A stretch of DNA of 5,486 bases from Enterobacteria phage ID18. The DNA lies in the sequence record NC_007856.1; one strand, written 5' to 3'. The number at the start of each line of letters is the position of its first letter. Position 1 is the stretch's first letter. Shown here one piece after another: positions 4-4,462 of the stretch. A program made the position numbers and the translations under genes. Below the pieces are notes generated by a model. That model saw only the letters and a program-made list of their open reading frames with translations, did no database searches and had not been told where the DNA came from.

Positions 4-30
4 TTGACTAACTATCTCTTCACTTAACAT
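4..30 (+). promoter_or_regulatory. Candidate promoter pA (gene A promoter) in the H-A intergenic region
   Basis: -35-like TTGACT at 4-9; weak -10-like TAACAT at 25-30 with a 15-nt spacer. Position matches where phiX174 carries a TTGACA-containing promoter just upstream of the gene A hairpin. The -10 is poor, so the call is tentative. Confidence 0.3.
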
Positions 31-56
31 GCCTCCAAATCAACGGAGGCTTTTCT
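31..56 (+). terminator. GC-rich hairpin (GCCTCC / 8-nt loop / GGAGGC) followed by a TTTTCT run; candidate intrinsic terminator that also contains the gene A Shine-Dalgarno
   Basis: Seen directly: 31-36 GCCTCC pairs perfectly with 45-50 GGAGGC (6-bp stem, loop 37-44), followed by TTTTCT at 51-56. As I recall it, phiX174 has a near-identical GCCTCCAAATCTTGGAGGC-TTTTTT element immediately before the A start codon. Confidence 0.5.
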
Positions 57-58
57 AC

Positions 59-1729
59 ATGCAACAACACTTAACCGCTTCGGACTTCTACCGCAAACCA
101 ATAATCGACGCTATCAAACCTCTTGTCGAAACTGCTGGTATGTCTGTGCTAACTCAATCTCCTAACCTCCGTATCTGGAAACAGTGCAACACTCGCGTAA
201 AACTGCTGGAAGAAATTCTAAATCATTACACTAACGGTATTCGCCGTGATGATAATGGTGACTTCTTTCTCAACCCTGAATGCCAACTCGCCACTACAAT
301 TGCTTATCGTGCTCACAAAAAGGGCCATAACCCTCGCTTTAAACAATACCCTGAGTCATTCACTCTGGACGATATTATTACTGGCAAACCAATTCCTCAG
401 ACTGCCCCTTCTGAGCTTCAACTTACTGATGAAATCGGTGAGGATTACCGCCTTACTGTACTCTCCATAATCGAAGAGTTAGACGAATGCTACAACGTGC
501 TCGGACAACTTGATATTAATAACACTATAGACCACAAACCTATCGGTAACGCCAAATGGGACTTAATGTATGAAAAACCTGTCTATAAACACTGGTATGA
601 ACTGGTATCAAAACGACCCCTTAAATCAATCAGAGAGGACTACAACTATGCAAAGGCTAAGGGTACTAAAGATGAGTGCTCGAAAATCCTTGAGGAATCC
701 ACCATGAAATCCCGCCGTGGCTTTACCGTTCAGAGATTGATGAATGCTATGCGTACTGCCCACACTGATGGCTGGTATGTTGTATTCGATACTCTCACCT
801 TAGCTGATGATCGTATTAAGGACTTCTATGCTAACCCCAATGCTCTTCGTGACTATTTCCGTGATATTGGCCGTATGGTTCTCACTGCCGAGGGTCGTTC
901 GGTCCATGATTCATCTTCGGACTGCTATCAGTACTTTTGTGTGCCTGAGTATGGCACCCAGCATGGCCGTTTACACTTTCACGCAGTGCATCTTATGCGC
1001 ACACTTCCTTTGGGTTCTCTCGACCCTAACTTTGGTAAGCTGGTGCGTACTAATCGGCAAATAAATAGCTTGCAAAACACATGGCCTTATGGTTACTCTA
1101 TGCCCATCGCAGTCCGGTATTCTCAGGATGCTTTCTCTCGCGCTGGATGGCTCTGGCCTGTCGATACAAAGGGTGAACCCCTTAAATCCACCTCGTATAT
1201 GGCTGTAGGCTTCTACGTTGCTAAATACGTTAATAAAAAATCTGATGTTGACATAGCCGCAAAAGGCTTAGGGAATCAAAAATGGAACGCTACATTAAAA
1301 ACGCAGATGGCTCTTTTACCAAAGAAACTATTTCGAATTCGAATGAGCCGCAACTTCGGGATGAAACTACTCCCAATGACGACGCTGACCGCGGAGTGTT
1401 TAATCCAACTGACCCAAGTGGGTTACGACGTGACCCCGTTCAACAACATCTTGAAGCAGAACGCCAAGAAAGAGCTACGATTGAGGCTGGCAAAGCAATC
1501 TGTAGCCGACGTTTTGGAGGCGCAACCTGTGACGACCAATCTGCTAAAATTCATGCGCAATTTGACCCGAACAATCGGAGCGTCCAGCCTACAGAGTTTT
1601 ATCGCTTCAATGACGCAGAAATTAGCAAATACGGATATTTCTGATGAAACTAAAAACTACGTTACTAATGCAGGAATTGCTGTTGCTGACTTACGACTTA
1701 AATCGAAGTGGACTGCTGGTGGAAAATGA
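59..1729 (+). CDS. A: Replication initiation protein A (rolling-circle HUH endonuclease; viral-strand nickase/ligase)
   Basis: Long ORF (frame 2) strongly similar along its C-terminal two thirds to phiX174 protein A as recalled. HUH motif HFHAVH is encoded at about 974-991 and the catalytic YVAKY tyrosines at 1214-1228. Start placed at ATG 59, which has a GGAGG Shine-Dalgarno at 45-49 with 9-nt spacing; the track's ATG at 29 has none. Stop TGA at 1727-1729. Confidence 0.85.
506..535 (+). other. Viral (+) strand origin of rolling-circle replication (30-nt ori core, protein A nick site)
   Basis: Sequence CAACTTGATATTAATAACACTATAGACCAC is identical to the conserved phiX174/G4 origin 30-mer as recalled. 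Protein A is expected to nick between G512 and A513. It lies inside gene A, as in all phiX-like phages. Confidence 0.85.
704..1729 (+). CDS. A*: Protein A* (in-frame internal initiation product of gene A; 341 aa)
   Basis: In-frame ATG at 704 encoding MKSRRGF..., the same N-terminus as phiX174 A*, preceded by GAGG at 692-695. The predicted length of 341 aa equals the phiX174 A* length as recalled. Expression is inferred by homology. Confidence 0.65.
1070..1099 (+). promoter_or_regulatory. Candidate promoter pB (inside gene A, upstream of gene B)
   Basis: -35-like TTGCAA at 1070-1075 and a weak -10-like TACTCT at 1094-1099 (18-nt spacer), about 180 nt upstream of the B start. Position and sequence resemble the phiX174 region TTGCAAAATACGTGGCCTTATGGTTACAGT. 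Weak -10, so low confidence. Confidence 0.3.
1282..1644 (+). CDS. B: Internal scaffolding protein B (120 aa), encoded entirely within gene A in a different frame
   Basis: 120-aa ORF in frame 1 nested in A. The product has the conserved [20 protein letters not shown] and EFYRF...GYF C-terminal motifs of phiX174 protein B. Stop TGA at 1642-1644. Confidence 0.9.
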
Positions 1730-2555: not shown

Positions 2556-3836
2556 ATGTCTAACGTACAAACTTCCGCTGAACGTATTCCGCATGACCTC
2601 TCACATCTGGTATTCGAAGCTGGTAAAATCGGACGCCTTAAAACTATCTCCTGGACTCCTGTTGTCGCTGGTGATTCTTACGAAACTGAAATGGTAGGCG
2701 CTATTCGTCTTTCTCCTCTCCGTCGTGGTCTGGCTGTCGACTCTCGCGTCGACGTCTTTACTTTCTATATCCCTCATCGTCATGTCTATGGTCAACAATG
2801 GATTGACTTTATGAAGACTGGCGTTAACGCTACTCCTCTGGCTCCGGTAACTTGTTCCTCTGGCTGGGATTCTGCTGCCTATCTTGGCACTATCCCGTCA
2901 ACTAATTTGAAGGTTCCTAAATTCCTTCATCAATCTTATCTCAATATTTACAACAACTACTTTAAGCCGCCGTGGTCTAATGACCTCACCTATGCTAACC
3001 CATCTAATATGCCCGCTGAGGATTACAAATGGGGCGTTCGTGTCGCTAACTTAAAATCTATCTGGACCGCGCCCCTTCCTCCTGATTCATTAACTAAGCA
3101 GGATATGACTACTGGCGCTACCACTATCGATATTATGGGCCTACAAGCTGCCTATGCTAAACTCCACACTGAACAGGAACGTGACTATTTCATGACTCGC
3201 TACCGCGATATTATGAAAGACTTTGGCGGTCACACCTCCTACGACGGTGATAACCGTCCTCTGCTCCTGATGCGCTCTGAATTTTGGGCCTCTGGCTATG
3301 ACGTCGACGGTACTGACCAAACTTCATTGGGTCAGTTCTCTGGTCGCGTCCAACAAACCTTTAATCATAAAGTGCCTCGCTTCTATGTTCCTGAGCATGG
3401 CGTAATTATGACTTTATCTGTTACTCGCTTCCCTCCTACTCACGAAATGGAAATGCACTATCTCGTCGGTAAGGAATCTCTGACTTATACTGACATTGCC
3501 TGTGACCCTGCTCTTATGGCTAACCTGCCTCCGCGTGAAATTGAGGTAAAAGACCTCTTTCACTCTGCTGGTACTGGTAAATTCAAAATTGCCGAAGGTC
3601 AATGGTATCGTACTCAGCCTGACCGCGTTGCCTTCCCTTATAACGCTCTTGACGGCTTCCCTTTCTATTCTGAACTGCCGTCTAATGATATTCTCGAACG
3701 TGTACTTGTTCGAACTGATAACTATGATGAAATCTTCCAGTCTATGCAACTTGCACACTGGAACATGCAAACTAAATTTAACACTACTGTATATCGTCAT
3801 ATGCCTACCACTCGTGATGGCATCATGACGTCATAA
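2556..3836 (+). CDS. F: Major capsid protein F (426 aa)
   Basis: AAGGA at 2545-2549, 6 nt before the ATG. The product is collinear with phiX174 F along its full length (MSN.QT.AER.PHDLSHL, RLSPLRRGLA.DS, IDIMGLQAAYA.LHT.QERDYFM.RY, GTDQTSLGQFSGRVQQT, LPPREI, FKIAEGQWYR, TTRD.IMTS). Confidence 0.95.
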   Translation: MSNVQTSAERIPHDLSHLVFEAGKIGRLKTISWTPVVAGDSYETEMVGAIRLSPLRRGLAVDSRVDVFTFYIPHRHVYGQQWIDFMKTGVNATPLAPVTCSSGWDSAAYLGTIPSTNLKVPKFLHQSYLNIYNNYFKPPWSNDLTYANPSNMPAEDYKWGVRVANLKSIWTAPLPPDSLTKQDMTTGATTIDIMGLQAAYAKLHTEQERDYFMTRYRDIMKDFGGHTSYDGDNRPLLLMRSEFWASGYDVDGTDQTSLGQFSGRVQQTFNHKVPRFYVPEHGVIMTLSVTRFPPTHEMEMHYLVGKESLTYTDIACDPALMANLPPREIEVKDLFHSAGTGKFKIAEGQWYRTQPDRVAFPYNALDGFPFYSELPSNDILERVLVRTDNYDEIFQSMQLAHWNMQTKFNTTVYRHMPTTRDGIMTS

Positions 3837-3928: not shown

Positions 3929-4462
3929 ATGTTTCAAACTTATCTCTCTAAACATAATTCTCCGTTAACTTCTCTGTCTATTACTGCTACAAAAACACCT
4001 GCGGCTGCTGCTCCGATTATTTCTACACCGGAGCTTAGCCGCTCTACTATTTTCGCTGGCTTAACTCTGACTGCTGCCACTACTCATTCTGGTGTCGCTC
4101 ATGTCGTTCGTATTGACGAAACCAATCCTACTGACAATCAGGTCTTATCGGTCGCCGCTTCTTTATCTGGCGTACCGTCTGATGCTATTGCTATTGCTAT
4201 TCGCTTTGAGGTCGCTGACGGTACCGTCCCTACTGCTCTCCCTGCTCTCTACTCTGCTTATCCGGTGGAATTCTTCACTTCTGGCGCTGCTCTGTCTTGT
4301 AAGGATGCCGTATCTATTCCGACGCATCCTGTTACTGCTGGTAATGATGTATATGCTGGTATTCTTATCTGGTCCAAATCTTGGTCCGCTGGTGTCGTCT
4401 CCGGCCTCTTATCTGTTAATCAGGTAAACCGTGAAACTACCGTACTCCAACCTCTTAAATAA
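3929..4462 (+). CDS. G: Major spike protein G (177 aa)
   Basis: ATG at 3929 preceded by TAAGGA at 3916-3921. The product begins MFQTYLSKHNS (phiX174 G begins MFQTFISRHNS) and ends ...SLNQVNRETTVLQPLK (phiX174 ...SLNQVIKEIICLQPLK). The track ORF starts at an upstream TTG (3884) and is over-extended. Confidence 0.88.
   Translation: MFQTYLSKHNSPLTSLSITATKTPAAAAPIISTPELSRSTIFAGLTLTAATTHSGVAHVVRIDETNPTDNQVLSVAASLSGVPSDAIAIAIRFEVADGTVPTALPALYSAYPVEFFTSGAALSCKDAVSIPTHPVTAGNDVYAGILIWSKSWSAGVVSGLLSVNQVNRETTVLQPLK

Follow-up and report, generated by a model that had tools for sequence, protein, structure and literature searches.

The window analysed here is the complete 5486-nt genome of ID18, a G4-like microvirus of the genus Gequatrovirus. 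Over the full genome length it is 98.4% identical to coliphage WA14 (DQ079909), a record filed under Gequatrovirus G4; identity to phage EMCL318 is 97.5%, and that to the remaining G4-like genomes is 82–85%. The differences from WA14 and EMCL318 are scattered and mostly synonymous. The gene map of WA14 (A, A*, B, K, C, D, E, J, F, G, and H) corresponds to the ID18 open reading frames at the same coordinates, and by both genome relatedness and gene order ID18 is a G4-type phage.

Gene A (59..1729, plus strand) is a single unbroken open reading frame encoding the 556-residue rolling-circle replication initiator, an HUH endonuclease, as assigned by PF05840, PHROG 713, and the WA14 annotation; it is annotated at 59..1729 in WA14 and at 59..1723 in G4. 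In the profile search, PF05840 (Phage_GPA) covers residues 140–397 and scores 195.2 bits, above its curated cut-off of 31.4, and PHROG 713 matches the protein with E = 5.7e-215. The HUH motif in the alignment is formed by H306-F307-H308, and two tyrosines, Y386 and Y390, are situated downstream with the spacing Y-x-x-x-Y. Both histidines are invariant and both tyrosines nearly invariant across the aligned A proteins, and these residues correspond to His263/His265 and Tyr343/Tyr347 of phiX174 with an offset of 43. The motif and both tyrosines are thus intact on the 3' side of the region preceding the origin, and the origin itself is exact. Its profile match, its HUH and two-tyrosine arrangement, and the origin located inside its own gene place the protein among the Phage_GPA (PF05840) initiators of the Bullavirinae. 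An internal in-frame start at residue 216 opens the A* reading frame (704..1729, plus strand), which is annotated in WA14 at the same coordinates and in G4, ID2, and EMCL318 at homologous positions. Residues 1–215 are the portion exclusive to full-length A, without a counterpart in A*.

The 30-nt viral-strand origin, CAACTTGATATTAATAACACTATAGACCAC, is located inside gene A at 506–535 (plus strand), with no mismatch to the phiX174 and G4 origins. By homology, the nick would fall between G512 and A513; the phiX174 cleavage site is given as G4305/A4306 in a 2026 preprint, and the phiX174 rep_origin is annotated at 4306. Origin mapping and alignments delimit a pre-origin N-terminal coding region of residues 1–149 (59..505, plus strand). 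Gene A was extracted from ID18 and ten relatives, and the origin was located in each. The number of codons in front of it is 149 in ID18, WA14, and EMCL318, 147 in G4, 146 in ID2, 137 in Lilledu and Lilleen, 106 in phiX174, and 81 in alpha3, WA13, and St-1.

The first-pass annotation had described this N-terminal region as longer than that of phiX174, for which it gave about 110 residues, with patchy similarity before the origin and near-collinear proteins after it. The phiX174 count is 106, and the description is otherwise accurate. Before the origin, 102 of the 149 codons can be aligned with phiX174, at 38% amino acid identity; from the origin onward, all 407 of 407 codons align without a gap, at 76% identity. 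The latter value suggests that ID18 A is a putative origin-specific nicking and joining enzyme that would act in cis, as the phiX174 A protein does (PMC3606162). The conserved islands that had been pointed out are also real, with SVLTQSPNL facing STLSQSPML of phiX174 and a counterpart of the phiX174 NRIKLLEEIL being present. These differences in length and divergence are measured directly between homologous genes, a comparison to which chance does not apply. Residues 1–127 match no Pfam or PHROG family, and a PDB sequence search with ID18 protein A returns no related chain.

The region in front of the origin is composed of four parts. The N-terminal tip (residues 1–12) varies in length among the G4-like phages; in Lilledu, the same hairpin and Shine-Dalgarno sequence precede a protein A whose start lies 12 residues further on. 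Conserved module 1 (residues ~13–72; 95..274, plus strand) holds the LTQSP and R(V/I)KLLEEIL islands and aligns with phiX174 and with distant relatives; over residues 8–72 it is 44.6% identical to phiX174 (tblastn), and Q42, R46, L49, and L50 are invariant in all clades of the alignment. Next comes a G4-type block (residues ~75–122, boundaries ± ~3 residues; 281..424, plus strand), defined by multiple alignments and absent from phiX174, with an overall pI of 9.0 and a basic front half. The last part is an acidic helix (residues ~125–149; 431..505, plus strand), identified by structure prediction and alignment, which has a pI of 4.05 and precedes the origin-encoded residues; it can be aligned in all clades and is only 28% identical to phiX174. 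The whole surplus of 43 codons over phiX174 resides in the single internal block of about 45 residues, which is flanked on both sides by segments alignable with phiX174. The length difference is one internal block and not a diffuse expansion.

Upstream of the gene, a promoter-like region (4..30, plus strand) contains a −35 element TTGACT at 4–9 and a −10 element TAACAT at 25–30, separated by 15 nt; its phiX174 counterpart in the alignment reads TTGACA, 17 nt, TTTCAT. A consensus promoter scan makes no call at 4..30, and homology suggests that the region corresponds to the promoter of gene A in phiX174. It is followed by a hairpin, GCCTCC-N8-GGAGGC, at 31–50 (−11.7 kcal/mol, z = −4.75 in the RNA fold) and by TTTT at 51–54. 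This element (31..54, plus strand), a match in the terminator-like scan, looks like a terminator after gene H. Simultaneously, the Shine-Dalgarno sequence of gene A (GGAGG, 45–49) is situated in the 3' arm of the hairpin. The layout of hairpin, Shine-Dalgarno sequence, and ATG is kept in G4, ID2, Lilledu, phiX174, and alpha3, and the annotated phiX174 transcript start at 3962 aligns within the hairpin loop.

A second in-frame ATG lies further upstream (29..31, plus strand) and opens the longest open reading frame, 29..1729. This ATG, which we judge not to be the start codon, shares bases with the −10-like hexamer and with the first position of the hairpin's 5' arm; Lilledu and Lilleen have ATA in its place, the alpha3 clade lacks it, and, to judge from the alignment with phiX174, it would lie upstream of the gene A transcript start. 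The start at nt 59 is the annotated one in WA14 and G4, and a homologous ATG (nt 62 in their own records) is used in ID2 and EMCL318. Homology with phiX174 A begins within about 8 residues of this codon (ASDFY versus HADYF), and the gene A frame is uninterrupted in ID18 and the 10 compared relatives.

The pre-origin segment is widely distributed. A nucleotide search with the 447-nt interval matches 380 phage records, 379 of which cover at least 80% of it. In a tblastn search with the 149 amino acids, identity is at least 99% in 2 records, 80–90% in 365, and 60–80% in 13; ID11/ID12 and G4 are 87.5–88% identical over residues 1–149. For phiX174-like records among the matches listed, the similarity is limited to residues 8–72, at 41–45% identity. 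The block is 87% identical to that of G4, 71% to that of ID2, and 75% to that of Lilledu, with 52 of 52 codons aligned. With a pre-origin part in the range of about 146–149 codons and a block carrying FTLDDII..KP.PQ.AP.EL, ID18 A is a G4-type long form.

The closest relatives share this form almost unchanged. WA14 protein A (AAZ49379.1) also has 556 residues, the same coordinates, and 149 pre-origin codons, and its residues 1–149 are 99% identical to ID18 in the global alignment, with H94Y as the single difference. In EMCL318 (AUG88354.1; 556 residues, 149 pre-origin codons), the first 149 residues are 100% identical. G4 protein A (YP_009497836.1, 554 residues), from the type member of the Gequatrovirus, has the same architecture, including the block of about 45 residues, and an identical 30-nt origin; its 147-codon pre-origin part is 85% identical to ID18, and its N-terminal tip is two residues shorter and differs in sequence (MFKVHSDYF). 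Synonymous divergence between the two is close to saturation (dS 0.9). The long N-terminus is therefore the usual form throughout the genus and appears in existing annotations: as a difference from phiX174 the reported extra length stands, but as a peculiarity of ID18 it does not, since about 380 G4-like records share the segment. It is a known genus-level trait and an ordinary difference from phiX174. The difference in gene A length between G4 and phiX174 has been visible since the G4 genome sequence of 1978, and Rokyta et al. in 2006 reportedly tabulated clade-specific gene lengths.

More distant A proteins show what is variable. In phiX174 (NP_040703.1, 513 residues), the HUH endonuclease, the in-gene origin, the internal A* start, and the hairpin-embedded Shine-Dalgarno sequence are all shared, and module 1 is about 45–46% identical to ID18; however, the block at ~75–122 is missing, leaving 106 pre-origin codons versus 149. 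In alpha3, WA13, and St-1 (494 residues), the family and the core are the same, but the origin has 2 mismatches in 30 positions, and alignment of the N-terminus is limited to a few invariant residues (Q42, R46, L49, and L50). An exhaustive HMMER search with residues 1–215 gives 707 hits, the best 150 of which are mostly fragments that look phiX174-like; among these 150, the informative distant relatives are P0132 and P0104. The latter, an incomplete protein, has a phiX174-like pre-origin length of about 104 residues. P0132 (551 residues) derives from a complete, unclassified metagenomic bullavirus-like genome (locus L011, 5491 nt) and is long like ID18, with 143 pre-origin codons, an origin identical at 28 of 30 positions, and an overall protein identity of 44%. 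Its module 1 is homologous (39% identity, E = 1e-10), whereas no significant match to the G4 block is seen in its middle segment (E = 0.19). From this comparison, the segment between the conserved modules varies in length and sequence from lineage to lineage and is a fixed feature of the G4-like phages. Word-indexed protein searches with residues 1–215 and with an 8-sequence profile return only 2–3 fragments and add no diversity.

Selection acts on the whole region. For the block, dN/dS comes to 0.10 in the comparison with G4 and to 0.11 in that with Lilledu, at a dS of at least 1, and the flanks of the block have values of 0.07 and 0.09 against G4. In the pre-origin part, amino acid replacements accumulate faster than in the core (dN against G4 of 0.109, versus 0.031 for residues 216–407 of the catalytic core), yet this part is under purifying selection, with a dN/dS of 0.12. 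The block is real coding sequence, maintained by selection and passed down throughout the G4-like phages.

Two alternative explanations carry very little weight. The extra length might be an annotation artefact, produced by a start placed too far upstream or by non-coding sequence joined to the gene through a frameshift or assembly error. The longer mechanical reading frame from the ATG at 29 makes the choice of start less than trivial, but the surplus is internal, the alignment with phiX174 runs from about residue 8, the frame is open in ID18 and ten relatives, start 59 agrees with four independent annotations, and the dN/dS of 0.10 in the block is maintained across lineages whose synonymous sites are saturated. 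Given the internal surplus, the early homology, the open frame, the shared annotated start, and the context of the ATG at 29, a start or frameshift artefact, which the first-pass annotation had named as what would overturn its claim, is ruled out by the pairwise and multiple alignments, and we give it practically no weight. The gene A start is confirmed as correctly called, and the length difference from phiX174 is located to one conserved block. Alternatively, the block could be conserved through an overlapping gene in another frame or strand, or through a cis-acting DNA or RNA structure, rather than through protein A. Overlapping genes are well known in microviruses, the +2 frame contains open stretches of 82 codons in ID18 and 68 in G4, and a small terminator-like hairpin is present at 241–261. 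The open stretch is not conserved in extent, however, being 48 codons in ID2, and the T-run of the hairpin is missing in G4 and ID2. Furthermore, the comparison with G4 gives a dS of 1.08 for the block, and those with ID2 and Lilledu give 1.36–1.37 for the pre-origin part, compared with only 0.05–0.44 in the parts of gene A that overlap B and K. The high dS and the non-conserved open stretches argue against a hidden overlapping gene, and the high dS also argues against a cis-acting structure, so that an explanation of this type is very improbable. As a terminator, the hairpin at 241–261 is rejected, its T-run not being conserved.

In the AlphaFold2 model of residues 1–215 (mean pLDDT 74.8, pTM 0.64), the N-terminal region is predicted to contain a helix at 35–58, a β-hairpin at 61–71, a strand at 120–122, and a helix at 124–153, the last with a pLDDT of 87–91. 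Inside the block, a helix at 76–85, short strands, and a small helix at 103–107 are predicted. Across residues 31–150, the 10-residue bins have mean pLDDT values of 70–91, and the block bins have values of 70–84. The model of full-length A, from a 10-sequence alignment, is poor (pLDDT 55, pTM 0.37), and its N-terminal secondary structure is identical to that of the 1–215 model; all of these structural models rest on alignments of only 8–10 sequences. With moderate confidence, the models suggest that the block is an ordered insertion in a helical scaffold and not a disordered linker. A fold search with the N-terminal model gives nothing significant, the best E-values being 0.19 in the PDB and 0.28 in BFVD, with TM below 0.35. 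According to a 2026 preprint, no structure of the A protein has been determined; the preprint models phiX174 A with AlphaFold 3, and the residues named there for a duplex-DNA wedge are C-terminal (Phe455 and Phe471). The PDB search likewise turned up no solved protein A structure, and the block therefore offers a clean natural insertion/deletion for probing the A-only N-terminal domain.

The function of this domain can be approached through phiX174. Published work assigns initiation at the duplex origin and contact with the host Rep helicase to the N-terminal third of phiX174 A, phiX174 A*, which lacks the first 172 residues of A, supports neither rolling-circle initiation nor DNA packaging, and two thirds of the chemostat-adaptive gene A substitutions fall within this N-terminal third (PMC3606162). 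Taking this literature together with the A-only extent of residues 1–215, the flagged region would form the front of a duplex-origin/Rep domain. We consider it likely that 59–505 is the front half of the A-only part in its G4-type long form, carrying a genuine genus-wide block and serving, by homology with phiX174, in duplex-origin initiation and work with Rep. In this proposal, a variable N-terminal tip, a helical module (~13–72), a folded block (~75–122), and an acidic helix (~124–153) running into the origin-encoded residues would build the domain; residues 1–215 would give A its rolling-circle start on the supercoiled duplex and its cooperation with Rep, and the catalytic HUH/tyrosine core lies downstream, collinear with phiX174. 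The block would most likely be a surface insertion in the helical scaffold that tunes a protein or DNA contact. The first-pass annotation had proposed that the N-terminal domain determines host or replication-factor specificity and that lineage-specific function would sit there. The literature does place helicase contact and initiation in the N-terminal third of phiX174 A; for the block itself, a lineage-specific function is plausible, and the analyses here gave no result linking it to Rep, SSB, protein C, or DNA. Phages with long, medium, and short N-termini are all coliphages; phiX174 lacks the block and alpha3 is shorter still, yet both replicate in the same host species, and the basic mechanism can thus proceed without it.

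The block may be a tolerated spacer without a function of its own, the length between the modules varying freely among lineages: the pre-origin part takes lengths of 81, ~104, 106, 137, 143, and 146–149 codons, the middle segment of P0132 is similar in length to the block without significant similarity to it, and phiX174 and alpha3 manage without any block. Within the genus, however, the constraint on the block equals that on its flanks, its exact length is kept in G4, ID2, and Lilledu, and it is modelled as ordered, all of which make a mere spacer quite unlikely. At the other extreme, the pre-origin segment could be a cassette for host or replication-factor specificity, in which the block would fit the G4-like phages to another Rep variant or another partner than that of phiX174. 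The helicase contact and the concentration of adaptive substitutions in phiX174, the more than threefold higher dN of the pre-origin part relative to the core, and the separate phylogenetic history of the segment (described below) speak for such specificity. Against it, the long- and short-form phages have listed hosts in common (E. coli C and K-12), the region is under purifying selection with no diversifying signal, and none of the present results ties the block to a partner; the idea is possible but doubtful.

The pre-origin segment and the adjacent core have different histories, with a boundary at or near the invariant origin, as judged from four genomes only. Among three-taxon informative sites at nt 59–470, 46 group ID18 with G4, 19 group ID18 with ID2, and 50 group G4 with ID2; at nt 536–1100, the corresponding counts are 17, 55, and 25. 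The two regions are heterogeneous (Fisher P = 3e-8), and the phylogenetic switch lies between about nt 476 and 525. With Lilledu added as a fourth taxon, the quartet sites at nt 59–505 number 16 for (ID18,G4), 3 for (ID18,ID2), and 10 for (G4,ID2), and those at nt 536–1100 number 6, 28, and 1, respectively. On the basis of these four genomes, the switch fits recombination at or near the origin, which is a known pattern: the origins of rolling-circle circular ssDNA viruses are recombination hot-spots, and natural patterns are similar in microviruses (PMC3187698). The phylogenetic switch seen here adds one minor case to that pattern. A stronger version, in which the pre-origin segment is an exchangeable cassette with its downstream boundary at or near the origin and such modules are shuffled between co-infecting phages, appears unlikely. 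Were it true, the block of about 45 residues would travel with the module as a lineage-specific partner-contact element; and if breakpoints do cluster at the origin, the nick-and-join chemistry of the initiator, or the release of genomes from concatemers, would shuffle N-terminal modules. Horizontal transfer among these coliphages was reportedly described by Rokyta et al. in 2006.

An origin of the block by duplication of other ID18 sequence was also considered and rejected, the only similarity being an in-frame stretch of 36 nt shared with gene F. This similarity exceeds that of codon shuffles; the gene F segment is variable in relatives, and the resemblance is probably due to chance.

Along gene A (59–1729, + strand), the grouping of the window with its relatives switches at the 30-nt viral-strand origin (506–535), the region 59–505 being compared with 536–1100. 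In 59–505, no grouping of the window with ID2 is seen, and the quartet sites of the four genomes (Lilledu being the fourth taxon) number 16, 3, and 10 for the pairings window–G4, window–ID2, and G4–ID2, respectively. In 536–1100, the window groups strongly with ID2, and the corresponding four-genome counts are 6, 28, and 1. The three-taxon site heterogeneity between the pre-origin and post-origin regions is significant (P = 3e-8). Such a phylogenetic flip suggests a recombination breakpoint in or close to the origin (506–535).

P0001 (159 aa) is the called protein of a near-identical relative from Logan; the longest contig that carries it has 5447 nt. P0001 matches the protein A of the window over residues 1–154 and then diverges, the divergence point lying within the origin-encoded residues, where GQLD is followed by TSSYQCL. 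The gene call or the assembly of P0001 seems to be broken at the origin. L011 (1–5491, Logan contig of SRR22420307) is a divergent bullavirus-like genome that looks complete; its origin differs from the window origin at 2 of 30 positions, and the two A proteins share only 44% identity. L011 encodes homologues of A, C, D, F, and H, with one unassigned ORF at the place where G would be, and apparently represents an uncharacterised lineage.

Within the pre-origin region, part of the G4-type block of gene A (350–385) shows an in-frame 36-nt similarity to gene F (3081–3116), with 28 of 36 nucleotides identical and the gene F peptide PDSLTKQDMTTG paired with 12 residues of the block. This similarity exceeds that of all 200 codon shuffles; however, because the gene F segment varies in G4, ID2, and phiX174, it is probably a coincidence. 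Upstream of the block, a terminator-like hairpin (TCGCCGT...ATGGTGA) with a T-rich tail is situated at 241–261 inside gene A. Its stem is retained or stronger in ID2 and its T-run is absent from both G4 and ID2; the hairpin is probably without function.

At the gene A start (29–58), the Shine-Dalgarno sequence GGAGG (45–49, + strand) constitutes the 3' arm of a terminator-like hairpin downstream of gene H, while an in-frame ATG at 29 (+ strand) lies within a -10-like hexamer and the hairpin 5' arm. Homology with phiX174 predicts a promoter-proximal transcript that begins in the hairpin loop, so that the Shine-Dalgarno sequence of gene A would be free, and read-through transcripts would sequester it.

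At the 3' end of gene A, dS falls to approximately 0.4 in the A/B overlap (1282–1644) and to approximately 0.05 in the A/K overlap (1645–1729), where the apparent dN/dS of gene A exceeds 1 against G4, ID2, and Lilledu. The low gene A dS over K and B is the expected signature of overlapping frames.
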